A stretch of DNA of 64,000 nt. Source: an uncultured Candidatus Micrarchaeota archaeon. Its GTDB lineage: Archaea > Micrarchaeota > Micrarchaeia > Anstonellales > Bilamarchaeaceae. The stretch is from contig OY970229.1 in NCBI GenBank assembly GCA_963714085.1, forward strand, positions 128,001-192,000, written 5' to 3'. This document shows positions 23,841 to 63,062 of the stretch, piece by piece. Made by a program: the position numbers and the translations under genes. The notes beneath the pieces are model-generated. The model was given only the letters and a program-made list of their open reading frames with translations. It did no database searches and was not told the origin of the DNA. Positions within the stretch are counted from its first letter, which is position 1; every line of letters begins with the position of its first letter.

Positions 23841-24596
23841 ATGAAACTGCTCAAACTGGGGGGCTCTGTGATAACCCGGAAGTCGGGATGGCGCGAGGCG
23901 GACCTCAAGGCGATAGAGGCGCTGGCGGACGTCGTGGCCTCGGCATGGAAGAAGTCCGAGCGCGACTGGGTGCTCGTGCACGGGGCAGGCTCGTTCGGCC
24001 ACCCGCTGGTCGTCAAGTACGGCATCAACGACGGCGTGAAGAACGCTGCGCAGAAGCTCGGGTTCGCGATGACGCACGAGGCATGCTCGGAATTGTCCGT
24101 GCTCGTCGTCGGAACGCTCAACAGCGCCGGAATGCCCGCGGTGCCGGTTCCGCCCGCCATGGTGATAACCTCCAAGAACAGGCGCATACACTCATTCAAC
24201 ACGAAAGTGGTCGACGATTACCTGAAATCCGGGTACGTGCCAGTGCTTTTCGGGGACATGGTCCCCGACATAGAGCTCGGCGGCTCGGTGTGCTCCGGGG
24301 ACCAGATAATATCCTACCTGGGCAAGGCTGCGGAGCGCATACTCCTAGCCACGAACGTGGACGGGGTGCTCGACGACAAGGGAAAGGTCATTGAGCAGAT
24401 AACGGGCAGGAACTTCGCGGACGTCTCGCGGCATTTCAAGTCCGCGGAAGGCGACGTCACCGGGGCAATGGCAGGCAAGATAAAGGAATTGCTCGAGCTT
24501 GATACTCCTTCTTACGTGGTCAACGGGCTGAAGCCTGAGCGCGTGGAGGCGCTCATGCTCGGGAAGAGGGCGGTCTGCACCGAGATAAGGAAATGA
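23841..24596 (+). CDS. ipk: Isopentenyl phosphate kinase
   Basis: KLGGSVIT.K, VHGAGSFGH, PVLFGD, SGD, DVTGAM.GK. Confidence 0.92.
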   Translation: MKLLKLGGSVITRKSGWREADLKAIEALADVVASAWKKSERDWVLVHGAGSFGHPLVVKYGINDGVKNAAQKLGFAMTHEACSELSVLVVGTLNSAGMPAVPVPPAMVITSKNRRIHSFNTKVVDDYLKSGYVPVLFGDMVPDIELGGSVCSGDQIISYLGKAAERILLATNVDGVLDDKGKVIEQITGRNFADVSRHFKSAEGDVTGAMAGKIKELLELDTPSYVVNGLKPERVEALMLGKRAVCTEIRK

Positions 24597-24635
24597 TGAA
24601 CACAAAATGTAATCATTTATAAGATAATCCCATCA
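24553..24635 (+). repeat. 83-bp direct repeat, copy 1 (IPK 3' end plus TATA promoter)
   Basis: 79/83 identical to 25989-26071. Confidence 0.95.
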
Positions 24636-24646
24636 TAACTTTTTTC

Positions 24647-25981
24647 ATGCCAGAGACAGCAACCGCCAGGGTTATTTTTGCGCCTAAGGCCAGCCGCGCT
24701 GTCCCGCCCAGGCGCTGCAAGCCGCATTTCTTCGCATGCCAGACAGAGGGCATACGCAAGCAGCCAAGGGGCGCCGGCAAAACCCGCAGGAAAGCCCTTC
24801 TGAACAGCGAGCTGGCAGGCCTCTGGGAGTTCGCTAAGAAGAGAAAGGCGACCATCTCGAAGAAAGAGGAGGCGGAGATGTTCGGGATATACCTGCGCGT
24901 GGTCAGGCGCATGCAGGAGCTGAAGCATCTGCGGGAAAGGTGGAACGGACCCGTGAAACAGGAGCTCGTGCGCCTTTCCGAGGCGAAGGAGCTTGCGGAG
25001 AGGGTGGTCGCGAGCAGAGGGGACATGAGATACCTCAGGGAACTCGCTGCAGAGAAGAGGCGGTCGCTCGAGAAAGAGGAGGAATACGCCGTCTTCCGGA
25101 TTTATAGGCGGGTGCTCCCCCGCATGATGAACCTCGGGAAGGGAGGCATTGCAGCGAACGCGGAACACGGACTCGTGGCTCAGGAGATGGAGCGGCTTTC
25201 CGAGGCGAAAAGGCTTGCCGAGACCATAATCATCCAGACCATGGAAAAGCAGTTCTGGATGACAGCCAAATACGTGATCCACCCCTCGGTCATAGAAAAA
25301 TCAGACCTCGTTCAGGAGGCCTGCATGGCTGTAGTAAGAAGAGCTATGCGCACCTTTGACCCTGACCAGGACTGCAGAATCTCCACGTACTGCCAGTTAG
25401 GGATAACGCGGGCCATGAAACGCGCGGTTCAGAATCAGGGGAAGACCATCAGGATCCCGTGCAATACGTACACCATAAGCGCCAAGGTCAACAGAGCTTA
25501 CATGGAATGCCGCAAATCTGGCTACGAGCCGACCGCGCAGGAGATAGCTGATCTTGCCGGACTCGACCTGAAGAAGGTCGTGAGATGCCTCGAAATGCCG
25601 GATACGCTCAGCATGGACGTTAGGCCAGAGGACAGGCTTGCATTAATCGATACGATTCCGGACAATGGCATGGATCCGCTGGAGACGCTTGTCAACGCTG
25701 AGGTGGGAAGCGTGGTGGAGACGCTCCTTGGGAAACTGAGGCCCGACCAGCGCAGGATATTGTGCATGAGGCAGGGCCTGGGCTGCAAAGAGCACACGTT
25801 GAAGGAGATCGCAGAAGTAGATGGATGCAGCGGCGAGAACATAAGGCAGAAGCTGTTCAAGATAGCGAGAAGGATACGCAATGCGAACAAGGCGCTGCTG
25901 CGCGAGTACCAGGGCTATGGCCCCGATGACGAAGCGCCATCCCATGAACCCGGAGAGCAGGCCAGCGCCGGGCAGCGGTAG
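24647..25981 (+). CDS. Sigma-70 family (RpoD/RpoS-like) protein
   Basis: DLVQEA, FDPDQDCRISTY, QGKTIRIP, EPTAQEIA, HTLKEIA...ENIRQ (regions 2-4). Confidence 0.88.
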   Translation: MPETATARVIFAPKASRAVPPRRCKPHFFACQTEGIRKQPRGAGKTRRKALLNSELAGLWEFAKKRKATISKKEEAEMFGIYLRVVRRMQELKHLRERWNGPVKQELVRLSEAKELAERVVASRGDMRYLRELAAEKRRSLEKEEEYAVFRIYRRVLPRMMNLGKGGIAANAEHGLVAQEMERLSEAKRLAETIIIQTMEKQFWMTAKYVIHPSVIEKSDLVQEACMAVVRRAMRTFDPDQDCRISTYCQLGITRAMKRAVQNQGKTIRIPCNTYTISAKVNRAYMECRKSGYEPTAQEIADLAGLDLKKVVRCLEMPDTLSMDVRPEDRLALIDTIPDNGMDPLETLVNAEVGSVVETLLGKLRPDQRRILCMRQGLGCKEHTLKEIAEVDGCSGENIRQKLFKIARRIRNANKALLREYQGYGPDDEAPSHEPGEQASAGQR

Positions 25982-25988
25982 CCTGCCA

Positions 25989-26071
25989 TCATGCCCGGGA
26001 AGAAGGCGGTCTGCACCGGGATAAGGAAATGACGAACACAAAATGTAATCATTTATAAGATAATCCCATCA
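25989..26071 (+). repeat. 83-bp direct repeat, copy 2
   Basis: Copy of the IPK 3' end plus promoter, located between the two sigma genes. Confidence 0.95.
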
Positions 26072-26082
26072 AATGAATTCTC

Positions 26083-27426
26083 ATGCTCGCAGCAGAAACG
26101 GCCAGGCGCACTCATATCCAATCAGCCGGCACGGCCCGTCCTGGACGCAAAGCATTGAGGCTCGTCGCGTGCGAGACGGAGACGATCCGCAAGCATCCAG
26201 CCAACATCAACGGGGCCCGCGGGAAGCCGCTGTCTGCGAAGGAGATGAGATACCTCGAAAGGCTCGCTGCAGAAAGGAAGGAGGTCATCGGGAAAAAGGA
26301 TGAGGCCGAGGTATCCGCGATATACCTGCGCGTGGTCTGGCGCATGGAGGAGCTGCAGGCGAAGCGGGCCACCAGGGCCGTGAGACTCGAACTCGAGCAG
26401 CTCTCCAATGCCAAGGGGCTTGCCGAGGGAATGGTCGTGAACGAGGCCGAGCTGCGGCAGCTCCGGGAAATCGCGGCGGAGAGGGCCAAGACGCTCGAGC
26501 CAGGAGTGGAACGGTACATCTGCACCATCTATCGGCGCGTGCACCCCCGCCTCATGAGTCTCAAGGAGGTCAACGAGGCGCAGAAAAAGATACCCGGGCA
26601 GCAGGGCTGCAAGGCCGAAAAGGAGCCCGGGCTCATCGAACGGGAGATCAAACGGCTCGCAGAGCCGAAGAGGCTTGTCGAGGATATAGTCACCACCGGG
26701 TTGAACGCGTTATTCTATGACAGGGCCCGGCGCATCTTAAGGTACCCTGATTCCATAGAGCGGTGCGATCTCGTCAATGAAACCAAGATTGCTGTCATAA
26801 ATAACGTCATGCCCCGTTTTGATCCGACCCTCGGTTACAGGCTGTCCACGTACTGCAACTTGCCGATGAACCGGGTCATGGTACGCTACGTACAGACTCA
26901 TAAGAGGGATATCAGGTGGCCGGTCTACATATGCGAGGCGATAGGCAGGTTGAGCAAGGCTTCGCAACTGCGCCGGAACCTGGAAGGCAGGGAACAGAGC
27001 ATCGAAGAAATAAGGAAAACCACGGATCTCCCCCCGAGCGTGATCGCAGCGTGCATGAGAGCGCCGCAAACGGTCAGCCTGAGCGAAAAGCTGCGCCACG
27101 GTGAAGGGAAGAAGCGGATCGACCGTATCGAGGATACAAGCAGCGTGAATCCGCTGGACGCGGTTTTCGATAGCAAAGCGAAGGATCTGGTGAACGAGTG
27201 CCTCGACGTACTCAGCCCGAGGTATGCGAGGATAATGCGCATGAGATACGGCCAGGACCAGACGCTCGACGCGATCGCTGACCGGGAGGGCATATCAAGA
27301 GAGAGGGTGAGGCAGATACTGGCCAAAGCCTTGAGGACGCTGCGCAGGAAGAATAGGATGAAGCTGTGCGATTTCTACGGGGGCAAACCGCCCTGTTACG
27401 ACCAGCAGGCTAATCTTGAGATGTAG
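26083..27426 (+). CDS. Sigma-70 family (RpoD/RpoS-like) protein, diverged paralogue
   Basis: DLVNE, FDPTLGYRLSTY, DIRWP, LSPR...MRYG..QTLDAIA..EGISRERVRQI..KAL..LR. Confidence 0.88.
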   Translation: MLAAETARRTHIQSAGTARPGRKALRLVACETETIRKHPANINGARGKPLSAKEMRYLERLAAERKEVIGKKDEAEVSAIYLRVVWRMEELQAKRATRAVRLELEQLSNAKGLAEGMVVNEAELRQLREIAAERAKTLEPGVERYICTIYRRVHPRLMSLKEVNEAQKKIPGQQGCKAEKEPGLIEREIKRLAEPKRLVEDIVTTGLNALFYDRARRILRYPDSIERCDLVNETKIAVINNVMPRFDPTLGYRLSTYCNLPMNRVMVRYVQTHKRDIRWPVYICEAIGRLSKASQLRRNLEGREQSIEEIRKTTDLPPSVIAACMRAPQTVSLSEKLRHGEGKKRIDRIEDTSSVNPLDAVFDSKAKDLVNECLDVLSPRYARIMRMRYGQDQTLDAIADREGISRERVRQILAKALRTLRRKNRMKLCDFYGGKPPCYDQQANLEM

Positions 27427-31222: not shown

Positions 31223-31331
31223 CTTCCTGCCTCCGAATATGGATAGGAAGATGCCACGCACAATAATAAAAATCTACCCTTATAACAAAGACTGAAACAG
31301 CAGTCCACAGCGAGTGATGGGTTTTATTCAG

Positions 31332-31403
31332 GCCCTCGTAGCGCAGTGGTAGCGCGCGTCCTTGGTAAGGACGAGGTCACGAGTTCAAATCTCGTCGAGG
31401 GCT
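31332..31403 (+). tRNA. tRNA-Thr(GGT)
   Basis: GCCCTCG/CGAGGGC acceptor, CGTCC-TTGGTAA-GGACG anticodon arm, TTCAAAT T-loop. Confidence 0.97.
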
Positions 31404-31479
31404 TACTCCAGAACCAAACATGGGATGTTTTTGTTGGACGGCAGAGAGAAATTAAATATCTTTAGCAAGTAAGGAAAGT

Positions 31480-31839
31480 GTGGAAGAAAAAATTGAAGTG
31501 GCTGCGTTTCTGAAGTTACTCAAGCAGAAAACGAGAGATATAGTGTATACCAGGCACTCAATAGTCCAGGCCAGAAAAAGGAATCTGATCGGGGCAGAAT
31601 TGGATAAGATAGATACGTTTGAATCAGACATCCAGAACACCCCGTATCTTGTTGTTGAGCAAGTCTCTGAACATCCCGATGAGCGCAAGTTTAAGGTCTT
31701 CTATCGGTCGCCAGTCGGGGGATTCTTATGCTATGTGTTTGCGTTGGACGGGCAGATACGCGTTATAACTGCGCGCAGGGAAACGAAAAGCCTGCAAAAG
31801 AAGATTTTTAAAATAGAAAAGGAGAAAGGATATAGATGA
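31480..31839 (+). CDS. Putative toxin (DUF4258/BrnT-like RNase fold)
   Basis: YTRHS...R, IRVITAR; AT-rich; overlaps the DUF2283-like gene. Confidence 0.6.
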   Translation: MEEKIEVAAFLKLLKQKTRDIVYTRHSIVQARKRNLIGAELDKIDTFESDIQNTPYLVVEQVSEHPDERKFKVFYRSPVGGFLCYVFALDGQIRVITARRETKSLQKKIFKIEKEKGYR

Positions 31840-32165
31840 TGAAAAACATAGAGTATGATTCCGATGCTGATGCGATCGCAGTACACGTAAGAAGGGAAAA
31901 ATCAGACATAACCGCAGAGCTAACTGAGCACATCTCAATAGATATGACTAACGGCGGGAAGGTTGTTGGTCTTGAGATACTGGATGCAAGTGAAGAGATT
32001 TCAAAACTGTTCGGCAGGATTGTCGGTAAAAAGGAAATCCAGCACCTATTGTGCCAGGTAATCCAAAAACCCAACGACCAGTATCTGGTACAGTTCAAAT
32101 CGCCCCAAAACAACCAGCTCGCTAATTTGTTGATTCCATTATACCGGAGCCCTTTAATCGCATAG
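31836..32165 (+). CDS. DUF2283 family protein, putative antitoxin
   Basis: YDSDADAIAV...ID...GKVVGLEILDAS. Confidence 0.85.
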   Translation: MMKNIEYDSDADAIAVHVRREKSDITAELTEHISIDMTNGGKVVGLEILDASEEISKLFGRIVGKKEIQHLLCQVIQKPNDQYLVQFKSPQNNQLANLLIPLYRSPLIA

Positions 32166-32198
32166 ATTTCCATCGCACGAACAAGGAACTTGAACCCG

Positions 32199-32228
32199 GA
32201 GTACATATTCCGTCGAGGGCTTTTTCCA
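32199..32228 (+). repeat. Degenerate copy of the tRNA-Thr 3' end (att-like)
   Basis: 24/30 identical to 31381-31410, with a 12-bp exact core CGTCGAGGGCTT. Confidence 0.75.
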
Positions 32229-40165: not shown

Positions 40166-40558
40166 ATGGAAAAAATCCTGGTGTTCGGGAACCCGCTCGT
40201 GGAGGGGGATTCGCTCCCGCTCCGGCTGCTGCCCAGCTTGAAAAAGGCCTTTCCGGGGATAGAGTTCGTGGAGTTCGACGCTGTGGAGGACCTGGAGAAG
40301 GCCGGTGAGGAGATAACCCTGCTGGACACCGTGCAGGGGATAGGAGAGGTGACGGTCTTCCACGGGATGGATTCCTTCTCCCAGAGCCCGCGCTTCAGCA
40401 TGCACGATTTCGACCTGCCGGTCTATCTCAGGCTGCTCACGAAGATGGGCATGGTGAAGAAGGTCACTATAATAGGAGTACCGGAAACAGGGAAAGAGGA
40501 CACGCTGAGACAAGCCGAGGAAGCGATATCGGGGCTGTTGGATGGAGAAGCTGATTGA
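40166..40558 (+). CDS. Hydrogenase maturation protease
   Basis: VFGNPLVEGD, LLDTV, SMHD. Confidence 0.85.
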   Translation: MEKILVFGNPLVEGDSLPLRLLPSLKKAFPGIEFVEFDAVEDLEKAGEEITLLDTVQGIGEVTVFHGMDSFSQSPRFSMHDFDLPVYLRLLTKMGMVKKVTIIGVPETGKEDTLRQAEEAISGLLDGEAD

Positions 40559-41189
40559 AATAAACGGCCGGATATACTCCGTCATACGGGTCACGTCCAC
40601 GAACAGGAACGCGATAGCCAGGCTCAAGGACGACAGGATAATCATCAGCGTCCCGCGCAGGTGGCCCCAGGGCGAGGCGGACGCGGTGGCTGGAAGGCTG
40701 GAGGCCCGCGCGATAAAGAGCATCTCCAAAGGGAGATGGGGCAGCCGCAGTATGAGGGGGCTGGAGTTCCAGCCTGGCCAGGAGCTGGAGATCCTCGGGA
40801 GAAGATTCAGGATAACTGGGAATTCCAAGCCGGAGAGGATACGCAAGGGAATAGCCAGGCGCGTGCTTCCGGACCTGGAAGCCAGGATAAGGATGATAAA
40901 CGAGGCGCATTTCAGGGCCGAGATAAGGCGCGTGTCGCTCCGGGACAACAGCAGCCGATGGGGCAGCTACTCCACCAAGGGCACGGTGAACCTGAATTTC
41001 AGGCTGCTCTTCGCGCCTCCGGAAATATTGGAATATGTGATAGTCCACGAGCTGGCGCACAGCAGATACCGCGGCCACGGGCCCAGGTTCTGGGGCGTGG
41101 TGGAGAAGCTGGTCCCGGATTACAAGGAGAAACGGAAGTGGCTCAGGGAGAACGGGCACACGCTGGGAACCGGACCATCTTTCCAGTGA
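40542..41189 (+). CDS. YgjP/DUF45 (M48-like) metal-dependent hydrolase
   Basis: SRWGSYS, EYVIVHELAH, HGPRFW. Confidence 0.9.
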   Translation: MEKLIEINGRIYSVIRVTSTNRNAIARLKDDRIIISVPRRWPQGEADAVAGRLEARAIKSISKGRWGSRSMRGLEFQPGQELEILGRRFRITGNSKPERIRKGIARRVLPDLEARIRMINEAHFRAEIRRVSLRDNSSRWGSYSTKGTVNLNFRLLFAPPEILEYVIVHELAHSRYRGHGPRFWGVVEKLVPDYKEKRKWLRENGHTLGTGPSFQ

Positions 41190-41204: not shown

Positions 41205-41332
41205 TCCATAAATATCCAGTGTCTGCATTCAGCATTTGTGATATTCAAAGTTATTCTTCGTCAAATGTCATATTTGTCGCTTGAAATGGATAAAAACGAT
41301 AAATTTAAATACTGTTTTTATGTAATATATTT

Positions 41333-42247
41333 ATGGAGCATGCGCAGCCCAAAAACCGTAAACTTGAATTACGGCTTAAAGAAGGATTTCTTTCACCTAA
41401 TGTAAGAAGAGAACTCAAAGGACCCATTTCATGCATTACTACTATGAAGCCTATTGTTGAAGTTACATTTAATAGAAAGCCACCTGTTTTTGGAGCGATT
41501 GATAATACTAGACCCCGGCAGATTGTCGGTCCTAGCCAAAAACTTGAAACTCTTAAAACAATGGCAATGGCATTGAGGACATTTGGTGAAAAAGTTCGCA
41601 TAGCTGAATTAGTTGATATGGTAAGAAAAAACCTGGTCTATCCGTACCCTGGTTCTGGCTTAGAGGCCCGATTTGATGCTTTGGAAAATGATGCCAAACA
41701 AGATGATGATAAACGACTTTCATTGGGGAAAGGAGTGCGATCTGAAAATCTGTCCGTTTTTGTAGATGCTGGAATTGGCAAATGCAGGCATTTTGCTGCA
41801 CTTTATGGGATTCTTGGCGCTTCGGCTAATTTAGACGTAGAACTTTTAGGCGGAATTGTAAGAAATTTCAATAGACCTGACACTAAATTACCTGCTTTCA
41901 AATCAATCCCCTTGGGCGTACAAGTTGAGCATGCTTTCAATGAAGTTCATTTAAATGGCGAAAGGATTCCTGTTGATCCTACGGCAAACATGGTTTGTTT
42001 TGACGATTCATCAAAAGCAGTGCACTACGAAAATTATGGTGTATGCCAGTTCAAAGACGACGAGGTCTCAATCCATGCATCAGATAGAGTTTTGAGCATG
42101 ACACAGCAATTTAATCTTACACGAAGTGGTTTGATAGTAAGGATTAGTGTAGCTGGGGAACCCAAAGCCCCATTGACTGCTTCTTTTGATATGGAAATTC
42201 AAAGCGCTAAACCTATAGTTGAAGGAGTCGAAATCCAAGTTTCATGA
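41333..42247 (+). CDS. Transglutaminase-like (Cys-His-Asp) protein on an AT-rich insert
   Basis: GKCRHFA, EHAFNEV, PVDPT; visibly much lower GC than the flanks. Confidence 0.8.
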   Translation: MEHAQPKNRKLELRLKEGFLSPNVRRELKGPISCITTMKPIVEVTFNRKPPVFGAIDNTRPRQIVGPSQKLETLKTMAMALRTFGEKVRIAELVDMVRKNLVYPYPGSGLEARFDALENDAKQDDDKRLSLGKGVRSENLSVFVDAGIGKCRHFAALYGILGASANLDVELLGGIVRNFNRPDTKLPAFKSIPLGVQVEHAFNEVHLNGERIPVDPTANMVCFDDSSKAVHYENYGVCQFKDDEVSIHASDRVLSMTQQFNLTRSGLIVRISVAGEPKAPLTASFDMEIQSAKPIVEGVEIQVS

Positions 42248-42309
42248 TTCATTCTTTCGCTCCGTTTCAGCTGCCTAGTAGCCTAATCCGTATAAAGACT
42301 GTTTCGGGT

Positions 42310-42342
42310 GGACCATCTTTCCAGTGATTGGGGATTTGAACC
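42310..42342 (+). repeat. 33-bp perfect direct repeat, copy 2
   Basis: Identical to 41172-41204. Confidence 0.97.
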
Positions 42343-42398
42343 CGAATTCGGTATAATGTCGCTTTTTAAGTATTAATGCGAAGGTTTAAATAAAGCGA

Positions 42399-43052
42399 AT
42401 GGGCAATGATATCATGGGAACGCCATCACTTAGGATGAAAAGCCTTGAGGATACCTGTAGAGATAGGCCCAGGGACAGGCTAACGGTGTATAAGCTGCCT
42501 GCTGAAAAATTGAATCTGCTAGGGACCGAGCTTAGATGCAGACTTGGCCCTACCGAAGCCGGAAATCTCCTTCGCGCTCTTTGCGAGGAAGACGATGCTA
42601 CGTTGGGGATGATCGGCGTCTCTCATGAAACGTTATCTGAACGATTGAAATCCCGGATACTGAATCCGAAAGCTACGGATAGAATCGATTTAAGCAGAGG
42701 CATCGAACACTGCCCATTCGGCAATGCGGGCTCATGCGACGTTCCTGAGCTATCTTCTGCAACGATCGCCCTCGTCAAAGTAGAATTGGATGCCGCACTG
42801 CGGTTTTCGCATCTGTTGGTCCATTTGGTCGCTGGGCACGGTTTTTTCGGATTTCCGGAACCGTCCTACACCGGCGTACCGGTCAGTACGTCCCGTGCGT
42901 GGCCCTTGGATCTCGCGCTCATGCTGGATTTGATTGACTCGGAGAAGCATGCGAGGGTAATTTCACAAGTCTATGGAGACGCGCTTACATGGAAAAGCCG
43001 ATTTTGGCCGGTTCGCGAGCTGGGACCAGGTCCTACTAGCGACTATAGATAG
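42399..43052 (+). CDS. Hypothetical protein
   Basis: 217-aa ORF; CPF and H-rich HLLVHLVAGHGFF segment; intermediate GC. Confidence 0.6.
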   Translation: MGNDIMGTPSLRMKSLEDTCRDRPRDRLTVYKLPAEKLNLLGTELRCRLGPTEAGNLLRALCEEDDATLGMIGVSHETLSERLKSRILNPKATDRIDLSRGIEHCPFGNAGSCDVPELSSATIALVKVELDAALRFSHLLVHLVAGHGFFGFPEPSYTGVPVSTSRAWPLDLALMLDLIDSEKHARVISQVYGDALTWKSRFWPVRELGPGPTSDYR

Positions 43053-43231
43053 AGTTGATTACTCCATCCGATCCATGCGAACAGAAGACATCGCATTTCA
43101 ATTCTTTTTAGGCCGATCCAAGCATTCTCTTCCTGGAACTGCTTTTCCTAGCCCTTGACGGAAATGGATTGGCGCCGATGCGCCCGCCCTATTGAAAAAG
43201 TTTTTTAAACGTTAACTAGGAAATCCGCTAT

Positions 43232-43290
43232 GGCGATGAAGCTCACCAGGCACTAGACCGAACCGCCCTCACCGGGCTGATGGCTTCTAC
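43232..43290 (+). promoter_or_regulatory. Fluoride (crcB-motif) riboswitch aptamer
   Basis: GGCGATGAAGCTCACC...AACCGC...GCTGATGGCTTCTAC follows the consensus GGCGAUGnnGUUCGCC...AACCGC...GCUGAUGnCnnCUAC; GAAGC/GCTTC pseudoknot; BRE/TATA GAAAAAG-TTTTTTAAA about 25-30 bp upstream; one C-A mismatch in P1. Confidence 0.82.
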
Positions 43291-43309
43291 TTCCAGAGGG
43301 ACAGATGCT

Positions 43310-43462
43310 ATGAACGTTGAAGACGCAAGGGTATGCACGACATGCCTCATGAACACCGGAATGAACATTTTGTTGGCCAAGAAAGACGACGTGTTCGTAT
43401 GCCCCAAGAATCCTGCGCACAGGTTCAGGCTGGGAAAAGACGGCTACCTGAGATCGATTTAG
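43310..43462 (+). CDS. 50-aa putative zinc-ribbon microprotein
   Basis: CTTC...CPKNPAH; ATG 19 nt after the aptamer. Confidence 0.7.
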   Translation: MNVEDARVCTTCLMNTGMNILLAKKDDVFVCPKNPAHRFRLGKDGYLRSI

Positions 43463-43479
43463 CATTCGTATTCGAAGAC

Positions 43480-43908
43480 GGTTTCCATGGACGCGGCTTG
43501 AGCCTCGGCGCGTCAATCGCTCTGGACGACCGGAAAACAAAAGATTAGCGTCTTTCACTCGTCGTCCTTAACCGGAGCAAGCTGCGGCTTGCAATTAAGC
43601 CTAAGGAAAGATTCGTCATACCCTGAGACGAGCGAAAAAAGAGATGCCTTGATTCCGTCAAACAATCGGATCCGCATGACTCCCTTTAGCCGGACCTTGT
43701 ATATAATGCCGCGTTTTCACGTCGGAGAGTTCCGGAAGGCCTGAAACGATGGCTTTGCACAGGAAAAACCGCGAAACGTGTCCCCAAACCATAGGAAACC
43801 CCGGCCTGCGGATGACGCTGACCCTAATCGCCGGTTTTTGGGTTAGGGCGCGCGCAGCGGAAAGAACGGTGTCAGAAAGAGGACTGACACGCTGAAGCAA
43901 AGCGTTTT
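43480..43908 (+). ncRNA. Candidate large structured non-coding RNA, family not recognised
   Basis: No credible ORF; long-range pairing 43480-43490 with 43789-43800 plus several local hairpins with A-rich linkers. Confidence 0.5.
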
Positions 43909-47822: not shown

Positions 47823-47910
47823 ATAGTTATTATATATGTATAATAGTGTTTATAAATAGTCGCATGTCGCGATTCTGGAGAACGCGGGCGGCCCGGCTTT
47901 GGCTTTAATG

Positions 47911-47934
47911 CGTCGTATTGGCCGGCTTCACGTG
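47911..47934 (+). repeat. 24-bp perfect direct repeat, copy 1
   Basis: CGTCGTATTGGCCGGCTTCACGTG, identical to 48528-48551. Confidence 0.95.
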
Positions 47935-47970: not shown

Positions 47971-48504
47971 ATGAAAAGACTCGTGGCAAAACAACTTGCA
48001 ATAGGCGCACTCGCAGGGGTGTTGGCGTTTACCGGAGTTCCGGCTTGCGGCAACAGAGCAGGGCAGGAAGCGAAGCAGCGGGAGAACCTGGCTCTCAGGC
48101 AGGAACTGCTGAGATTCAAGAATGAGCGCATCGAAGGCGCGTGCCGGCTCTCTACCAGCGAAGTTTTGCTCACGCTGAAAAACGGCAAAGGCGTGGTCCT
48201 CCAGTCAATCGAGCCGCTCCACCGCATGTCTTTTGATGCAAGGATCGAACTCACGAAAGATAAGACGCTATTCTTCAGATTGCCGGGCGAAATCAGCCCG
48301 GATACCCAGCAAGGCGAGTTGACGCTGACCACCTGGGACGGCAGGAACCAATACTCCAGCGGACCCCTTATCCTCGAGGTTCCGATGTGCGAAAAAGGCC
48401 AGGCAAGGATGCGCAATCCGAACATCTCCGCGATTGCAGCCCATGGCAACGCCAGCGGAGATAGCGGGATATTGCTGCTCGGAACGCTCTTTCTCCTGAT
48501 GTGA
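47971..48504 (+). CDS. Putative exported or lipoprotein, hypothetical
   Basis: Basic N-terminus, hydrophobic stretch, VPACG; hydrophobic C-terminus. Confidence 0.6.
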   Translation: MKRLVAKQLAIGALAGVLAFTGVPACGNRAGQEAKQRENLALRQELLRFKNERIEGACRLSTSEVLLTLKNGKGVVLQSIEPLHRMSFDARIELTKDKTLFFRLPGEISPDTQQGELTLTTWDGRNQYSSGPLILEVPMCEKGQARMRNPNISAIAAHGNASGDSGILLLGTLFLLM

Positions 48505-48527
48505 CGAACAGGCCTTGCGATTCAATC

Positions 48528-48551
48528 CGTCGTATTGGCCGGCTTCACGTG
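48528..48551 (+). repeat. 24-bp perfect direct repeat, copy 2
   Basis: Identical to 47911-47934. Confidence 0.95.
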
Positions 48552-57676: not shown

Positions 57677-58651
57677 ATGCTCAACACAAAACAGCTCGGT
57701 AGGACGTGCAAGGCGACCATCGTCGGGGTTTCTCTTTCGCTCATGGTCGCGGGATACCATCCGATGGCGGAGGCCAGGCAGCCAGACGCGGTGGCCGTAG
57801 TGCAGCCGGACAAGGCCGTTTCAAACAGCGCGCTGTTCCGTGCCATTGAATCACGGGATGTTGAACAAGTCAGATCCGCGATCGCGGCCGGGACGGATGT
57901 GAACGCAAAAAGACATGGCACGACCGCGCTTGAGAGTGCTGCATGGGACGGGCAAACAGAAACGGTCAGGGTGCTGCTGGAGAATGGCGCAAAAGTGAAT
58001 GCTGACTCAGGCGGCGCGCTCAGGGGCGCTGCAGGGAATGGGCACACAGAAACGGTCAGGCTGCTGCTGGAGAATGGCGCAAAAGATGCTAGCTCAGGCG
58101 GGACCGCGCTCATGGAAGCTGCATATGATGGGCGAAAAGAAGCCAGGCTGATATCTTTTCGTCCGCTTTTTCCTCTATTACGGAATTACCACCGGGCATA
58201 TAATGGGCGAACAGAGATAGCCAAGCTGTTACTGGAAAATGGCGCAAAAGTGAATGCAAAGAATGGCTCAGGCGCGACCGCGCTCATGATTGCTGCGCAT
58301 GAAGGGCAAACAGAAATGGCCAGGCTGCTACTGAAAAAGGGCGCTGATGCGATTGCAAAGGACAACACATACGGCTGGACCGCGCTCATGTTTGCTGCAG
58401 ATGAAGGGCAGACAGAAACAGCCAAACTGCTTCTAGGGAAGGGCTCCGATGTGGATGCAAAGGACGAACACGGCGAAACCGCGCTCATGATTGCTGCATC
58501 GAAGGGGTACACAGAAACAGTCAAGCTGCTACTGGAGAAGGGTGCCGATGTGGATGCAAAGAACGAACACGGCGAAACCGCGTTCGGTAATGCCACAAGA
58601 ATGGACCACCCTGACATCGCCGCTCTCCTGCGCGCGAAGATGGCCAAGTGA
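57677..58651 (+). CDS. Exported ankyrin-repeat protein, array member 3
   Basis: Nearly the same signal as member 2; about 7-8 ANK repeats, one interrupted; ends LLRAKMAK. Confidence 0.92.
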   Translation: MLNTKQLGRTCKATIVGVSLSLMVAGYHPMAEARQPDAVAVVQPDKAVSNSALFRAIESRDVEQVRSAIAAGTDVNAKRHGTTALESAAWDGQTETVRVLLENGAKVNADSGGALRGAAGNGHTETVRLLLENGAKDASSGGTALMEAAYDGRKEARLISFRPLFPLLRNYHRAYNGRTEIAKLLLENGAKVNAKNGSGATALMIAAHEGQTEMARLLLKKGADAIAKDNTYGWTALMFAADEGQTETAKLLLGKGSDVDAKDEHGETALMIAASKGYTETVKLLLEKGADVDAKNEHGETAFGNATRMDHPDIAALLRAKMAK

Positions 58652-58775
58652 ACTCGCCCGTCAGACCTGCGAAAGGCTCCTGAAGCTTCGCGCCATCGTG
58701 CAGCGGCGGTCCTGGCTACACACGAAATTACAACGAGCATAACTGTTAAAAGATATTCTCCGCAACATAAGTGCC

Positions 58776-59450
58776 ATGTTCAACACAAGAAGGCTAACAA
58801 TGACGTGCAAGGCGACTGTTGTCGGGGTTTCAATCGTGGTTGCTTTGTCAGGATGCCACCCGAAAACAGACAAACTGGGTCTGGCCATGGAAAACGCCAT
58901 CACTTCCGGGGATGTGAAGAAGGTCGGATCGCTGATTGCATGTTGCGTGGACGTGAATGCGAAGGACAAAGATAACCACACCGCACTCATGTATGCTGCA
59001 GAGCTTGAGCAAACAGAAACAGCCAGATTGCTCATGGAGAAAGGCGCTGACGTGAATGCGAAGGACAAAAACGGCTATACTGCGCTCATGGTTGCCGCAT
59101 TGAGAGGGCAAACAGAAACAGCCGGGCTGCTCCTGGAAAAGGGCGCTGGTGTGGATGCGAAGACCCACGACGGCTGGACTGCGCTCATGGAGACCGCATG
59201 GTTTGGGCAAACAGAAACAGCCAAACTGCTACTGGAGAAGGGTGCGGATGTGAATGCGAAGGACAACTACGACTGGAACGCACTCATGGTTGCTGCGGAG
59301 TATGGGCGTACAGAAACGGTCAGGCTGCTACTGAAGAAGGGTGCTGATGCGAATGCCAAGGATATCAGTAGCAAAACCGCTCTCGATATCGCCGTAAAAT
59401 ATAGCTACGCTGAGATCGCCGACCTTCTCCGCGCGAAGATGGCCAAGTGA
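58776..59450 (+). CDS. Ankyrin-repeat lipoprotein, array member 4
   Basis: Lipobox LSGC; about 5-6 ANK repeats; ends LLRAKMAK. Confidence 0.92.
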   Translation: MFNTRRLTMTCKATVVGVSIVVALSGCHPKTDKLGLAMENAITSGDVKKVGSLIACCVDVNAKDKDNHTALMYAAELEQTETARLLMEKGADVNAKDKNGYTALMVAALRGQTETAGLLLEKGAGVDAKTHDGWTALMETAWFGQTETAKLLLEKGADVNAKDNYDWNALMVAAEYGRTETVRLLLKKGADANAKDISSKTALDIAVKYSYAEIADLLRAKMAK

Positions 59451-59636
59451 ACTCGCCCGTCGGACTTGTGAAAACCGGCGGTGTTTGGTCGCTGCGTTTC
59501 CCATGCTCGAAACAGCCGGAACCGGGCCCGGAACGGCCTCGCCGGCGCTTCTTTGCCGCTAGTGTTGTCAATAGTAGTAAAATATATATTTATAAAGGAT
59601 TTGATGCTTATTGTATGTCATCCAAGAGGCGCGTTT

Positions 59637-60068
59637 ATGGGGGAATTAGTTCGTAGGCCAACCAAGCTGGGCGTGCGTTCGCCAGGCGCATCCTTGCCCA
59701 AAGTAGATGCGATCCTGACAAGCAGATTGCTGGATAAGAGCGCCAGCTTAGATGAGATGAGGGCCCGCATAGGAAGGAGCTTCGGGCAAGCGTTGGAGGC
59801 GGTCCCGGACGGGTACAGGCCTGCGGTCGTCGATGCCTTGGCGAACAGGCTCGCGGGCATGGCACGCGAATACGAACGCGCGCCTCAGCCGCAGAAACAG
59901 CACGCGCTGGGGACCGTTCTCATCGCGGTATGCGGTTTTTTTGATGTGGCACACCTTGCAGGGCCCCGGGATATGCCTGAATTGGTGGAGACGGTCTGCG
60001 CCACCATCCAGAATATGGTGGTGGACTTCGGCTATTTCAAGCCGCGATACGAAGGCATCAGGCACTGA
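59637..60068 (+). CDS. Hypothetical protein
   Basis: ORF from ATG 59637; TTTATAAA upstream. Confidence 0.55.
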   Translation: MGELVRRPTKLGVRSPGASLPKVDAILTSRLLDKSASLDEMRARIGRSFGQALEAVPDGYRPAVVDALANRLAGMAREYERAPQPQKQHALGTVLIAVCGFFDVAHLAGPRDMPELVETVCATIQNMVVDFGYFKPRYEGIRH

Positions 60069-60077
60069 GCCAGAAGA

Positions 60078-60128
60078 TTCTTTTCCTCTCCGTGCCTCTT
60101 GAGGGCTCGGGGGACACGAACGAGTCGC
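60078..60128. repeat. Degenerate copy of the atpD 3' region, most distal
   Basis: 16-bp exact match GACACGAACGAGTCGC (60113-60128 = 62464-62479) plus TTCCTCTC..TGCCTCTT upstream. Confidence 0.75.
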
Positions 60129-60164
60129 ATGCATTCTTAAACACTTTTATATACATTAGAATCC

Positions 60165-61055
60165 ATGAAACAGGACGTGAGGCGGGGGAAGGAAGTGACC
60201 CAGAAGCCGATGAGGCATCTGGATGCTTCGGTGATAACAGGTTTAGGAGAGAAATACCAGCCCAAAGAGACCGTCATCCCCTGCACGGGCAATGCGATAA
60301 GGTTGGGGGTCGGCGACGGAGCCGTGGGGATGACCGATCATGAGATAATGGACATCCTACGGAAAGACCGCGAATCGGCCGGGATCGACAGATTGCCCCT
60401 TAAGCAAAGAAAGACGCTTGTCGAGTTACGCATCAAATTAAGCAAAGACGGGGCCGGATCGTTCACACCGCAGGAAAGAATGTGGTTACAGCGGTCTATC
60501 CGCCCGGTCCAGGAGGCCGTCAACCCGGAAGAGAGGCAGAGGCGGGATACCCGGGTCGCCGCGTTCCTGGCGTTCTATGATGGCAAGCGATGCGATGAAG
60601 GCGTCTTGAACGATTTTTTCACCCGGGAAGCGATTGAAACGCTGGTAAGCGACGCTTCGGAGGTGCTGGGCCCGTATGGCGTCGGTGAAGAGAAGGCGCG
60701 CGGGTTCGCCCATAGGTGCGGAAGATGCTTCCTGGAGAATTGCCGCGCTATCATAGACGAAGGATTCGAAACCGGCCAGATCACGCGTTCAAACCTGGCC
60801 CGCACGTTGTTTGCCAGATATCTGAATCCGAAACACATGCTGTATTTCCTCGATTACATCCATTTCGGCACAGAGGAGCGTTTCGGCTTCAGCGGGATCC
60901 CCGAGCTGCTCGGACGCGAATTGAAAAATATGACGAAGAAAGATCCCGAAGATATCGAGGGGAAGCTGGAGACCGTCCAGTTCCCGACGAGCCTGTACGC
61001 GCTGCATATCACTGCGTTCAATCCCGGGAGGGGCGGCTCTACAGGGAACAGATAG
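60165..61055 (+). CDS. Hypothetical protein
   Basis: 296-aa ORF; TTTTATATA upstream. Confidence 0.6.
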   Translation: MKQDVRRGKEVTQKPMRHLDASVITGLGEKYQPKETVIPCTGNAIRLGVGDGAVGMTDHEIMDILRKDRESAGIDRLPLKQRKTLVELRIKLSKDGAGSFTPQERMWLQRSIRPVQEAVNPEERQRRDTRVAAFLAFYDGKRCDEGVLNDFFTREAIETLVSDASEVLGPYGVGEEKARGFAHRCGRCFLENCRAIIDEGFETGQITRSNLARTLFARYLNPKHMLYFLDYIHFGTEERFGFSGIPELLGRELKNMTKKDPEDIEGKLETVQFPTSLYALHITAFNPGRGGSTGNR

Positions 61056-61063
61056 CGTGAACG

Positions 61064-61087
61064 GCCTTGAGGGAGACGAACGAGTCG
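61064..61087. repeat. Degenerate copy of the atpD 3' region, middle
   Basis: 22/24 identical to 62455-62478. Confidence 0.8.
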
Positions 61088-61145
61088 GCCGCGGCTTGGG
61101 GAATCGTGGAGCTTACCGATCATATTTCTGTTTTTACCCTGGGCA

Positions 61146-61481
61146 TCATTTGCCAAGAATGGCCTTGACTGCGGTTTCGAGGGCAGGGAGCTTGTTCGTC
61201 ACCACATCCCAGACGATCGCCATGTCCACGGCAGCGTATTCGTGGACGAGGACGTCCCTCAGACCGGATATCTTCTTCCATTCGATGTCCGGATGCTGCT
61301 TTTTGATATCGGCTGGCACGCTTTTCGCGGCTTCGCCTATGATGAGAAGGTTTCTTATCACCGCATCAGACGTGAGGCTGTTTCCAGCGAACGCCTCGAA
61401 GTCCATGCCTTTTGAATATCTGCGTATTTTGCCTGCCGCTTCGAGGATATCCTCGAGATAGACATTATAGTCCTTGGACAT
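61146..61481 (-). CDS. HEPN (DUF86, HepT-like) toxin
   Basis: IIGEAAK, IEWKKISGLRDVLVHEY (RxxxxH). Confidence 0.92.
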   Translation of the reverse strand: MSKDYNVYLEDILEAAGKIRRYSKGMDFEAFAGNSLTSDAVIRNLLIIGEAAKSVPADIKKQHPDIEWKKISGLRDVLVHEYAAVDMAIVWDVVTNKLPALETAVKAILGK

Positions 61482-61755
61482 AAAGCGCCTCTTCTTTCAC
61501 GTAGCTGAGAGCGGGCTTCAGACTGCTTTCCATCACCAGGTCCACTTTCCGGTGGAACAGGCGTTCAAGGAAGAATTTAAGCTCCATGTAGTTGTCGAAT
61601 GTCGCGGTCCTGAAGGAGACCAGGAAATCCAGGTCGCTGCCCTTCTTCTCCGTGCCTTTGAGCACCGAGCCGAAGAGCCCTATCTGCTTGACTTCGTATC
61701 TCCTTATCTCCTCTTTGTGCTCTTCGAGCGTCTGCACTATTCGTTTCGGAGTCAT
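61465..61755 (-). CDS. Minimal nucleotidyltransferase (MntA-like) antitoxin
   Basis: GLFGS...SDLDFLV, KVDLV. Confidence 0.92.
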   Translation of the reverse strand: MTPKRIVQTLEEHKEEIRRYEVKQIGLFGSVLKGTEKKGSDLDFLVSFRTATFDNYMELKFFLERLFHRKVDLVMESSLKPALSYVKEEALYVQGL

Positions 61756-61849
61756 TGCTCGCACGCGTTTCATGGATAAAGATTGCACTTCAAGCATTAA
61801 AAAGGACTCCGGTTTCCGCTCCCGCAAGCGGGCCTTGCTTTTGCGGCGT

Positions 61850-61907
61850 TCAGCCGGCCTTCTTCTCGAGTTGCCTCTTTATTGACTTGAGGGAGACGAA
61901 CGAGCCG
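61850..61907. repeat. Degenerate copy of the atpD 3' end, proximal
   Basis: 61864-61907 is 39/44 identical to 62435-62478; TCAGCCG (stop context) also retained at 61850. Confidence 0.9.
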
Positions 61908-61994
61908 GCCGAGCATCGCTCTCGCCTTAAAGGCCAGGCCCTCGTTCACGCGCAGTGGCAACCGTTTATAATAATTCGATTCGTACTACCCTCC

Positions 61995-62405
61995 ATGAGG
62001 ATCTACATCTGCTGCAGCAAGCACTTCTACCACCTGATAGCTCCGATAAAGGGAAAGCTCGAAGAGCGGGGCCATGCGGTGACCCTTCCCAACAGCTACG
62101 ACGAGCCGTTCAAGGAGGAGGAGATGAAGAAGCAGGGGAAAGCGGCGCACGTGGCGTGGAAGGCGGGCATGATAAGGATGCAGGACCCGAAGGTGCGGGC
62201 GAATGACGCGGTGCTGGTGCTGAACTTCGAGAAAAACGGGGTCAAGAACTATATCGGCGGGGCAACTTTCCTGGAAATCTTCATGGCGTTCCAGCTCGGG
62301 AAGAGGATATTCCTCTACAACCCGGTGCCGGACAATATTTTCCGGGACGAGCTGGTCGCGATGGACCCCGTCCTGATAGAGGGGGACCTGTCGCGGATAA
62401 GATAG
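61995..62405 (+). CDS. Nucleoside 2-deoxyribosyltransferase-like small Rossmannoid protein
   Basis: IYICCS, DAVLVLN...YIG..TFLEI.MA..LGKRIF. Confidence 0.65.
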   Translation: MRIYICCSKHFYHLIAPIKGKLEERGHAVTLPNSYDEPFKEEEMKKQGKAAHVAWKAGMIRMQDPKVRANDAVLVLNFEKNGVKNYIGGATFLEIFMAFQLGKRIFLYNPVPDNIFRDELVAMDPVLIEGDLSRIR

Positions 62406-62408
62406 CCC

Positions 62409-63062
62409 TCAGCCGTTCTTCTCCTTCTTCTTCCTCTCGAGCTGCCTCTTTATTGCCTTGAGCGACACGAACGAGTCGCGCTCCATCTCGTCCAGCCTGA
62501 AGGATATCATGAGCCTGGTCTCGTCCAGCTGGGGTATGAGCACGAACTCGAGCGCATTGACTCTTCTCTTTGTCTTCTCGATCTCCACGATGAGCTTCTT
62601 CATCGCGGTCTCGCTCTCGGCCAGCTTGATGACGAGTTTGAGGACGTCGTCGAACTTCTCCACGCCCTGGTCTATCTTGGCAGAGGTCGATGCGACGGAG
62701 TAGGTCGGCAGCTCTATGAAGCGCGTGGATGCCATCTGGGTCGTCAGGTACGGTATCTTCACGCCCATGACGTTCTTGACCTCGATGTCTATGTCGATGT
62801 CCTTCCTGAGGTTGAGCGACACCGAGCCCAGCTCCCACGACGGATGATAGGTGCCGGCCAGCGATACCGCTGCGTAGCCCTCTTTCATCTTGACCCCGAG
62901 CTCGCCGCGCAGGTCCTGGGCCTTCTTGAGTATCTTGAAGAACTCCAGGATGAGCGCGTCCCTCTTCTGCTTGAGCAATTTATGCCCCTTCTTGGCCAGG
63001 GCTATGCGCTCCTTGATCTTTATGAGCTCCATGCGCGTCGGGTTGACGTCGAGTACCGCCAT
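62409..63062 (-). CDS. atpD: A/V-type ATP synthase subunit D
   Basis: VNPTRMELI, GHKLLKQKRDAL, EIEKTKRRVNALE. Confidence 0.97.
   Translation of the reverse strand: MAVLDVNPTRMELIKIKERIALAKKGHKLLKQKRDALILEFFKILKKAQDLRGELGVKMKEGYAAVSLAGTYHPSWELGSVSLNLRKDIDIDIEVKNVMGVKIPYLTTQMASTRFIELPTYSVASTSAKIDQGVEKFDDVLKLVIKLAESETAMKKLIVEIEKTKRRVNALEFVLIPQLDETRLMISFRLDEMERDSFVSLKAIKRQLERKKKEKNG

Follow-up and report, generated by a model that had tools for sequence, protein, structure and literature searches.

In the single-contig, 1,571,539-bp genome of a Micrarchaeota archaeon (G000; a DPANN archaeon, 57.3% G+C), we identified small gene cassettes that lie directly behind core genes and that are followed by a spare copy of the 3′ end of the gene they adjoin, and we conclude that these cassettes are real insertions of accessory DNA at core-gene ends, and are not the product of deletions. 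Our analysis is centered on a stretch of 64,000 nucleotides (bases 128001-192000 of the contig), which we refer to as the window, and which contains three such cassettes in series behind atpD, encoding subunit D of the V/A-type ATPase, and two behind a gene encoding a YgjP-like metallopeptidase. The reading that we put forward for their origin, and to which we give a little less than an even chance, is a homology-driven (Campbell-type) gain of cassettes without a recombinase of their own. The closest genomes compared were two relatives from the same genus, G001 (about 1.3 Mb in 70 contigs, 88% complete) and G002 (about 1.0 Mb in 200 contigs, 73% complete).

An earlier note on the window, made from the letters alone, had reported five repeats of this kind, all of which exist at or near the places it gave, and had proposed that such repeats should be enriched in the genome relative to shuffled controls, and at stop codons in particular. 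Our search of the whole genome shows that direct 16-mers located 200-3000 nt apart occur at 78 loci, compared with 6 loci for inverted 16-mers, and that two codon-block shuffled genomes contain direct 16-mers at only 6 and 2 loci. To define individual pairs, we selected exact seeds of at least 16 nt located 60-3000 nt apart (118 loci), removed 21 loci that contained five or more pairs, such as ankyrin arrays and giant genes, and kept those with a length of 18-160 nt and a spacing of at least 200 nt, resulting in 95 pairs. Comparison of each interval with its neighbouring intervals by tblastx assigned 72 of these 95 pairs to tandem paralog arrays, in which this genome is very rich (e.g., ankyrin genes and giant surface-protein genes), and 23 to an isolated class; exclusion of one pair inside a giant gene left 22 isolated pairs at 20 loci. 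The predicted enrichment is thus present, with the qualification that most pairs belong to paralog arrays. At 6 of the 20 isolated loci, the native stop codon is located inside the gene-proximal copy with the cargo downstream, where 1.02 loci are expected by random placement, and only 1 in 5000 random placements (0.0002) reached six loci; the opposite orientation was found at 2 loci, with 1.0 expected. By position and Pfam match, the six targets are the YgjP-like gene, a gene of 258 amino acids at 200 kb, uvrC, the gene encoding RNase P subunit p29, a gene encoding a MacB-like permease and a gene of 83 amino acids at 1478 kb. The atpD gene is a seventh target, missed in this count because the seed pair found there was formed by two of its spare ends (c1 and c2, described below).

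The target open reading frames (ORFs) are intact at all the cassette loci. Repeats of 33, 48, 53 and 73 nt, and of 26-29 nt at atpD and p29, fall within an overall range of 20-130 nt, and the inserts they bound are 0.4-1.9 kb in size. The freshest cassettes have perfect repeats of 33, 49 and 62 nt, are 1.1-1.8 kb long and are already without an integrase. The foreign cassettes, at the YgjP-like, atpD, uvrC, MacB-like, p29 and 200-kb loci, have no tblastx similarity to their neighbours, and several cassettes have a G+C content far below that of the genome (e.g., 0.39 and 0.43, compared with 0.573). Two further loci, at the RtcB and TYW3 genes, were considered as foreign cassettes and dropped, since their spare copies are flanked by paralogous genes. 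The repeats at different loci are unrelated to each other, as had been claimed, in that the 13 repeats contain no common word beyond the level seen in shuffled sets. The claim that the cassettes are without terminal inverted repeats and without an integrase also holds: when four cassette regions were scanned for inverted repeats, the pairs identified were all short and internal, and none bounds a cassette, and when cargo ORFs, both those of the window cassettes and those of 11 further loci, were compared with Pfam, NCBIfam and PADLOC, no recombinase or integrase fragment was identified in any cassette.

The atpD locus illustrates how these cassettes are arranged. Proceeding downstream from atpD, the order is cassette A, c1, cassette B, c2, cassette C, c3 and the native convergent neighbour (Table 1). 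In G001, the atpD stop codon is located 86 nt from the ortholog of 59543-60058, with a single gene end present and all three cassettes missing. The copy c3 is probably the displaced ancestral atpD end. The core of the functional gene end that is repeated in c1 and c2 (62457-62482) encodes DSFVSLK, the best-conserved part of the gene end among relatives. Examination of c1 demonstrated that it continues, on the cassette side of this core, into a foreign, in-frame, atpD-like tail, and for this reason we suggest that the MNT-HepT toxin-antitoxin (TA) cassette arrived with an atpD end of its own. The two TA proteins match Pfam HepT-like (9.5e-32) and NTP_transf_2 (3.5e-14), and PADLOC PDC-S09. Homologs of this pair are present with other flanks in two metagenome contigs (L086 and L087), and in a third (L088) the pair lies behind a gene encoding an XPD-like helicase, between 41-nt copies of the end of that gene, with the spare helicase end keeping its frame and having its own stop codon.

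At the YgjP-like locus, G001 is without window positions 41169-43533, and its YgjP-like gene is joined directly to the sequence at 43534, i.e., it represents an empty site for both cassettes. The C-terminal tail encoded by the YgjP-like gene in the window differs from that of G001 after the residues HTLG, and the G001 tail matches the relic at 43505-43551, and not the 33-nt repeat. Since the far end of the island aligns with the gene tail of G001, the older insertion (cassette 2) appears to have replaced the tail of the gene and displaced the ancestral one, with cassette 1 later duplicating 33 nt of the new tail. The 304-amino-acid ORF of cassette 1 has no match in Pfam, NCBIfam or PADLOC and no close relatives in genome contigs; an Atlas search gave a weak lead to DUF553/transglutaminase-like clusters, to be read as a lead only. 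An exact 26-nt word taken from the 33-nt repeat had no match in JGI metagenome contigs. Empty sites, which the earlier note had expected in related genomes, are therefore present for the YgjP-like and atpD cassettes, in G001 only. The note's repeat lengths stand at these two loci (33 bp, perfect, behind what it called an "M48-like" gene, and three copies of the atpD end), as does its 83 bp at the gene it called "ipk".

Table 1. Positions of the target genes, repeat copies and cassettes in the window
Feature	Position	Strand	Details
YgjP-like metallopeptidase gene, insertion target	40542..41189	+	Pfam PF01863, 4.6e-37; the "M48-like" gene of the earlier note
33-nt repeat copy 1, across stop codon	41172..41204	+	100% identical to 42310-42342
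Cassette 1	41205..42309	+	One ORF, 41333-42247 (304 amino acids); G+C 0.39, third-codon-position G+C (GC3) 0.29
33-nt repeat copy 2	42310..42342	+	1138 nt downstream of copy 1
Cassette 2 (older)	42343..43505	+	ORF 42399-43052; fluoride riboswitch 43223-43296; 60-amino-acid ORF 43280-43462; G+C 0.50
Relic of ancestral YgjP-like 3′ end, displaced to far side of island	43505..43551	+	Alignable to the tail of the G001 gene and the sequence downstream of it
V/A-type ATPase subunit D gene, atpD	62409..63062	-	Pfam ATP-synt_D, 5.6e-56
Cassette A	61912..62408	+	One ORF, 61995-62405 (136 amino acids), convergent on atpD; no family found
atpD end copy c1	61850..61911	-	26-nt core and in-frame atpD-like tail SIKRQLEKKAG, then stop codon TGA
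Cassette B, MNT antitoxin and HepT toxin	61092..61849	-	MNT 61465-61827; HepT 61146-61481
atpD end copy c2	61066..61091	-	26-nt core only; 25/26 identical to c1 core
Cassette C	60132..61065	+	One ORF, 60165-61055 (296 amino acids)
atpD end copy c3, outermost and most decayed	about 60078..60131	-	Alignable to atpD positions -70 to -16, with gaps that shift the frame
Native convergent neighbour of atpD	59661..60068	+	G001 ortholog 86 nt from atpD stop codon
Amino-acid-kinase-family gene ("ipk" of the earlier note)	23826..24596	+	Pfam AA_kinase, 5.4e-31; last 44 nt open repeat copy 1
ipk/sigma repeat copy 1	24553..24670	+	Kinase 3′ end, spacer with TATA-like box, first 24 nt of sigma-like gene 1
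Sigma-70-like gene 1, between repeat copies	24647..25981	+	Pfam Sigma70 r2/r3/r4
ipk/sigma repeat copy 2, pseudo ipk end	25989..26106	+	Precedes sigma-like gene 2 (26083-27426)
tRNA-Thr (GGT)	31331..31404	+	ARAGORN; Rfam tRNA, 72.4 bits; target flank of small island
tRNA-Thr cassette	31405..32198	+	Genes 31480-31839 and 31836-32165; about 0.8 kb; G+C 0.43, compared with 0.573 for the genome
Degenerate copy of tRNA-Thr 3′ end	about 32199..32228	+	12 exact bases (CGTCGAGGGCTT) and scattered matches; no clean 30 bp
Promoter-side repeat copy 1	47897..47934	+	75 nt upstream of start of minus-strand gene 47142-47822
Gene between promoter-side copies	47983..48504	+	173 amino acids (201 if read from 47899); no family assigned
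Promoter-side repeat copy 2	48514..48551	+	65 nt upstream of DUF2065 gene 48616-49017

The way in which the functional and spare gene ends differ from each other helps to discriminate between possible origins of the repeats. Using the five loci at the 200-kb gene, uvrC, RNase P p29, the MacB-like permease gene and atpD (copy c1), we observe that 22 differences between functional and spare ends are distributed over codon positions 1, 2 and 3 as 3, 2 and 17 (binomial P = 3e-5). The encoded tails are identical or one residue apart at uvrC, p29 and the MacB-like gene, and the spare copies contain an in-frame stop at the same codon, which at the 200-kb gene reads TGA where the functional end has TAG, with a synonymous Leu codon before it. 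An excess of third-position differences is expected if both copies were gene ends in different lineages, and is not expected if one of them decayed in place. Because 17 of the 22 differences are at the third position and because the spare copies keep their in-frame stops, the incoming DNA probably carried the homologous gene end of a relative. An incoming gene end fits either a Campbell-type single crossover or a classical att site borne by an element. The repeats at the cassette loci end at the stop codon or 0-15 nt beyond it, which is where similarity between donor and recipient genes would cease. On these sequence comparisons we favor a Campbell-type, homology-driven insertion, although unproven, over a duplication made at insertion.

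Our inventory of recombinases identified three genes encoding tyrosine recombinases (PF00589) in the genome, at 284.7-285.9 kb, at 1287.8-1289.1 kb (next to tRNA-Asn) and at 1308.4-1309.6 kb (next to tRNA-Glu). None of these is in or beside the window cassettes, and no Phage_integrase (PF00589) match is present in the window; the absence of an integrase in cis, on which the earlier note had relied, is confirmed, and action in trans, which it had named as one route, stays compatible with this inventory. No second copy of the tRNA-Glu or tRNA-Asn end was found within 30-40 kb of the integrase genes. No serine recombinase over cut-off and no Y1 transposase was found in the whole genome, a single DDE_Tnp_1 gene is present at 973 kb, and a genome self-comparison showed no other dispersed repeats of at least 250 nt and at least 80% identity outside giant genes, other transposase families not being searched with profiles. 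A TnpB-only element of 1.3 kb, encoding a TnpB-like protein with a zinc-ribbon end, is present as six diverged copies (84-91% identical) at 263.4, 683.8, 840.1, 1059.5, 1158.2 and 1179.4 kb. In addition, a 1.6-kb unit with one 389-amino-acid ORF is located between 69-nt repeats (80% identical) directly upstream of one tyrosine integrase gene (L031 3960-5697; genome 282960-284697); no third copy of the 69-nt repeat was found, and this unit may be an integrase-less unit sharing the site of an integrase.

Three other explanations were weighed against homology-driven gain. It is possible that the repeats are long, variable target duplications, i.e., that foreign DNA entered a staggered break, or was inserted by template switching at a stalled fork, with the duplication of 20-130 nt of the recipient, and that the coding-type differences were acquired afterwards through allele replacement of the core gene by recombination with relatives. 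We regard this as unlikely, though well short of negligible, since it accounts directly for repeats that are unrelated to each other and variable in length, for inserts without mobility genes and for the perfect repeats (33, 49 and 62 nt) of the freshest cases; the presence of the same families at different targets is easily explained if the repeat is made anew each time, a truncated argC gene among the cargo suggests the capture of arbitrary DNA, and comparable bacterial insertions have repeats that, in the part of the study used here, are often located across start or stop codons (Furuta et al. 2010, PMC2853133). However, a copy made in place should decay without regard to frame, as in the pseudo-copy of the kinase gene end described below (codon positions 0/3/0), and this is at odds with 17 of 22 differences at the third position and with the stops that were kept. 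A duplication of the recipient also cannot yield the foreign atpD-like tail of c1, and three events at the same 26-nt core require extra assumptions.

Classical site-specific integration is in our view improbable. The cassettes would then be satellites without an integrase that are mobilised in trans, or what remains of larger integrated elements after loss of their integrase, with attL and attR as the repeats and with the 3′ end of the target contained in the att site of the element. Site-specific integration shares with our data the standard features of archaeal elements, i.e., targets in tRNA genes and gene 3′ ends, regenerated ends, arrays and element-borne ends under coding constraint; three tyrosine recombinases are available, two of them beside tRNA genes (tRNA-Asn and tRNA-Glu), and the integrase-less 1.6-kb unit at 283-285 kb lies in front of an integrase gene. 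These points are countered by the absence of an integrase or integrase fragment in any cassette, by the missing second tRNA-Glu and tRNA-Asn ends, and by the youngest cassettes (perfect repeats, 1.1-1.8 kb) being already integrase-less, so that decay does not explain the loss; at least ten unrelated repeat sequences without a common core would have to be served by three integrases. The elements in the part of the archaeal survey used here carry an integrase by definition, the smallest being 2.6 kb (PMC6563490). Given integrase-less cassettes of 1.1-1.8 kb, the lack of a common core and only three integrases, we consider an integrase less likely than plain homologous recombination, although not impossible. 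It is very improbable that no special route exists, with the pairs representing junctions of ordinary tandem duplications in which the second copy was lost or has diverged, and in a few cases chance matches or errors of assembly. The genome is very rich in tandem arrays, 72 of the 95 pairs lie in tandem paralog arrays, and the spare copy is flanked by paralogs at the ipk/sigma, RtcB and TYW3 loci. Yet the six foreign-cassette loci have no tblastx similarity to their neighbours, several have a far lower G+C content, and empty sites are present in G001, so that for foreign cassettes this explanation is largely refuted. Even at the sigma-like paralogs (36% identical), the repeat (79/83) is far younger, and among the loci where tandem-duplication homology does hold (ipk/sigma, RtcB and TYW3), the RtcB copies differ at 1/1/8 by codon position. 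Assembly artefacts, which the earlier note had named as a way for its proposal to fail, are made less likely by the single 1.57-Mb contig and by Logan contigs from run X1 that cover the cassette interior and flanks at the YgjP-like locus; run X2 contains short pieces of a relative only, and the parts it leaves uncovered are uninformative.

Under homology-driven gain, each cassette would come from a related archaeon in the form of a small circle, or of a fragment that has circularised, carrying the last 25-130 nt of the same core gene beside its cargo, and would recombine with the recipient gene end by short-homology (Campbell-type) recombination. The core gene would remain intact with a hybrid or donor-derived end, and the second repeat copy would be the displaced end, left beyond the cargo. 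Each later arrival would again recombine at the functional end and move the older cassettes outward, so that arrays such as the three cassettes at atpD and the two at the YgjP-like gene would build up. Recombination between the copies could set a cassette free as a circle with one copy, which another host could then receive. In this scheme, the circle, the reliance on homologous recombination and the donors are all inferred. Campbell-type integration at short homologies, which the earlier note had suggested among other routes, is the best supported reading on account of the synonymous-site pattern.

Several points weigh against this reading. No circle junction was seen, all the empty sites rest on one relative, G001 (locus L011 being the same contig as G001:C17), and the gene calls behind the stop-codon statistics come from our own rough codon-usage caller. 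The synonymous pattern could also have arisen if recombination later exchanged the core-gene allele as far as the cassette border. At the YgjP-like gene, the older insertion swapped the tail for unrelated sequence without detectable duplication. The same cassette families (the RelE-like pair and MNT-HepT) are present at different targets with different repeats, i.e., cassettes change address, which pure homology cannot achieve, and therefore some step that pairs a new gene end with the cargo is needed; candidates for this step are the illegitimate formation of a circle that takes in the end of a neighbouring gene, or a duplication arising during insertion, as for the bacterial restriction-modification genes (PMC2853133), and both routes may operate. 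We know of no demonstration in DPANN archaea of recombination on 26-33 nt of homology. Finally, one 886-nt Logan contig (run X1) joins 41171 to 42310 across the 33-nt repeat and skips 41172-42309; since this repeat is longer than the word of 31 used by the assembler behind the Logan contigs, the cassette-free contig may be a graph shortcut, and we have not counted it as evidence either way.

The cargo of the cassettes consists of the HepT-MNT pair, a RelE-like pair (identified by eye from sequence), three AAA_14/DUF4143 ATPases, a truncated argC gene and several ORFs without a family, among them the 296-amino-acid ORF of cassette C, which has no match in Pfam, NCBIfam, PADLOC or Atlas and no close relatives in genome contigs. 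A single methylase fragment was found, at 1314 kb. The RelE-like pair lies between 48-nt copies of the end of the 200-kb gene, and a pair 80% identical to it is present at a different locus of G001, with no flanking repeat of at least 12 nt. The three ATPases are unrelated to each other and match the candidate defence family PDC-S01; a single mobile ATPase element was considered and rejected, since the three PDC-S01 cassettes, which have perfect or near-perfect repeats, have no nucleotide similarity to one another. One of them is bracketed by a perfect 62-nt intergenic repeat (L038 3612-3673 and 5421-5482; genome 1429612 and 1431421), whose only G001 counterpart (L057 7126-7187) is 90% identical and borders a different cassette, the RelE-like pair; this 62-nt repeat matches no RNA family in Rfam, relaxed threshold included, and has no stable fold. 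The uvrC cargo is an argC gene without roughly its first 55 codons (L036 4133-4927; genome 1322133-1322927), i.e., a gene fragment as a cassette. At uvrC, two contigs of G001 are identical over 119 nt of the uvrC end and differ beyond it, which represents either an assembly fork or a repeat.

Cassette 2 behind the YgjP-like gene contains a fluoride riboswitch (43223-43296; Rfam RF01734, 42.2 bits) followed by a Cys-rich ORF of 60 amino acids. This unit is present in three genome copies (RF01734, 40-42 bits), about 76% identical over roughly 270 nt, at window positions 43223-43462, in L033 (5270-5341) and in L036 (7663-7736), with the window copy located inside the island missing from G001. The 270-nt segment was considered as the signature of a mobile element, being near three cassettes, and this was rejected once it was recognized as the riboswitch and small ORF.

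The proposal that all five window loci follow one pattern is only partly borne out. The genome-wide pattern lies behind three of them, with weak repeat evidence at tRNA-Thr, and the ipk/sigma and promoter-side loci are of other kinds. The two ipk/sigma repeat copies are identical at 79 of their first 83 nt and at 101 of 118 (86%) overall, and the sigma-like genes 1 and 2 that follow them are paralogs with 36% amino-acid identity; because of this difference, the repeat appears to be far younger than the gene pair. Within the kinase frame the pseudo-copy has three differences, at codon positions 0/3/0, a divergence that looks neutral. In the parts retrieved, G001 has one repeat copy and diverged sigma-like genes at this place, and we regard it as a paralog array whose junction repeat is young. 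Matches to bacterial-type sigma-70 regions 2, 3 and 4 in Pfam are thus seen in two proteins of an archaeal genome, with diverged counterparts at the same place in G001. The "tandem duplication" beside RtcB shows 1/1/8 differences by codon position with the stop codon kept, which suggests that some paralog pairs may have been added in the same way as the cassettes. The RtcB gene itself contains a mini-intein (Pfam Intein_splicing; L035 4379-6256; genome 1304379-1306256), and G001 and G002 are without about 394 nt there.

Behind the tRNA-Thr gene, the clean 30-bp repeat that had been described is reduced to 12 exact bases, a match for which the chance expectation in 1.5 kb is 9e-5. One gene of the cassette encodes a DUF2283 protein (2.6e-10), and the other has a weak BrnT_toxin match (1.3e-3) that is below the cut-off. 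G001 contains about 4.3 kb of different low-G+C DNA behind its tRNA-Thr, with an AbiEii-type toxin gene, and no integrase or detectable copy of the tRNA end was found in that island; we describe the tRNA-Thr flank as a variable spot with weak repeat evidence. The two halves of the G001 tRNA-Thr gene (L084 7178-7329, G001:C13) are each 100% identical to the window gene and lie about 74 nt apart at the anticodon-loop position, this gap probably being an intron that G000 is without. The fifth locus had been reported as an intergenic 24-bp pair; we find a pair of 38 nt at 87% identity with a 28-nt core at 96%, both copies of which are located upstream of gene starts and not at a 3′ end, and no DNA matching this pair was found in G001 or G002.

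Two further features of the window are recorded here. An ankyrin array (53973-59450) consists of five ankyrin-repeat genes with common 99-nt repeat units, and the distance between flanking matches is about 5 kb in G000, compared with only about 0.6 kb in G001. On the minus strand, a 95-nt stretch (45545-45640) is 92% identical to G001, compared with 75-85% for neighbouring genes, and its fold resembles that of an intron-containing tRNA, including an acceptor stem and a GGTTCAACTCC T-loop (z = -2.7 to -3.7); it was called neither by ARAGORN nor by Rfam, including at a relaxed Rfam threshold.

The genomes of DPANN archaea are very small and contain few recognisable mobile elements; these archaea have no genetic system, and their accessory gene content varies strongly between strains. 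We consider it possible, if on balance doubtful, that the cassettes reflect a standing, recombinase-free capture route in DPANN archaea, in which small circles, freed when the two gene-end copies recombine and carrying one of them as an "address tag", re-insert in related cells, by recombination at short homology, at the conserved last codons of the same core gene. If such a route exists, core-gene ends would represent many dispersed, integron-like docks for cassettes, and diverged gene copies from relatives would also be added and would later resemble tandem paralogs. This would explain the turnover of defence and TA genes, and part of the tandem paralog arrays, in DPANN archaea; a spare gene end with coding-type divergence would serve as a simple bioinformatic marker of recent gene gain, and gene delivery by a circle with 30-70 nt of a gene end would be suggested. 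A limited literature search found no published description of this cassette pattern in DPANN archaea.

Several known systems share features with these cassettes. Integron cassettes, archaeal ones included, are one- or two-gene, promoter-poor and TA-rich, and are added serially with the newest next to the insertion point. The cassettes described here are likewise of one or two genes, promoter-poor, TA-rich and stacked in series with the newest nearest the insertion point, but their repeats are the coding end of the neighbouring gene, and there are many insertion sites rather than a single attI. We rejected an integron reading, as four regions contain no attC-like imperfect palindromes and the window contains no PF00589 match, the IntI-specific insertion not having been examined in the three distant integrases. 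In Campbell-type integration, a circle joins the chromosome by one crossover, so that the segment common to both is duplicated around the other DNA of the circle, as in the tandem duplications or merodiploids of transformable bacteria; in contrast to the classical case, we infer a homology of only 25-130 nt with 4-16% divergence, and to our knowledge there is no description of Campbell integration as a regular way for archaea to gain cassettes. Transposons and insertion sequences (IS) differ from the cassettes, which have no terminal inverted repeats and have repeats that vary in length from 20 to 130 nt. Of the features that define integrative elements, direct repeats with an empty site and a 3′-end target whose gene end is regenerated are present, and a recombinase inside the element and a common att core are absent.

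Among archaeal integrated elements, as covered in the part of the survey used here, 14 of 68 are located in 3′-distal portions of protein genes, re-use of a site results in arrays, one element replaced the last 8 nt of a gene, and sizes range from 2.6 to 140 kb with short att sites (Krupovic et al. 2019, PMC6563490). These elements, e.g., in Thaumarchaeota, resemble the cassettes in target choice, in the regeneration or replacement of the gene end, in arrays formed by site re-use and in empty sites in relatives; unlike the cassettes, they encode an integrase and are 2.6-140 kb in size, whereas here no integrase is present, the inserts are 0.4-1.9 kb and the repeats are unrelated. In the sections of Furuta et al. 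2010 (PMC2853133) on which we draw, insertions of restriction-modification (R-M) genes without mobility genes have unique, locus-specific repeats of tens of bp or more and an empty site in a relative, selected as a repeat of >30 bp, unique and variable between loci, around an insert of <20 kb without a mobility gene; most cases were in naturally competent bacteria, no archaeal case passed the screen, and the mechanism is described there as still open. Insertions of this Nobusato/Furuta type are the same in being small blocks without a transposase or integrase, with locus-specific repeats that are often located across start or stop codons and an empty site in a relative, and the repeats of 33, 48, 53 and 73 nt (26-29 nt at atpD and p29) and inserts of 0.4-1.9 kb described here agree with the selection used there. 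They differ in being bacterial and in having R-M cargo, where we find a DPANN host with TA pairs, candidate defence ATPases, unknown genes and a gene fragment, and in that our cassettes stack at one site with copies that differ in a coding-type pattern.

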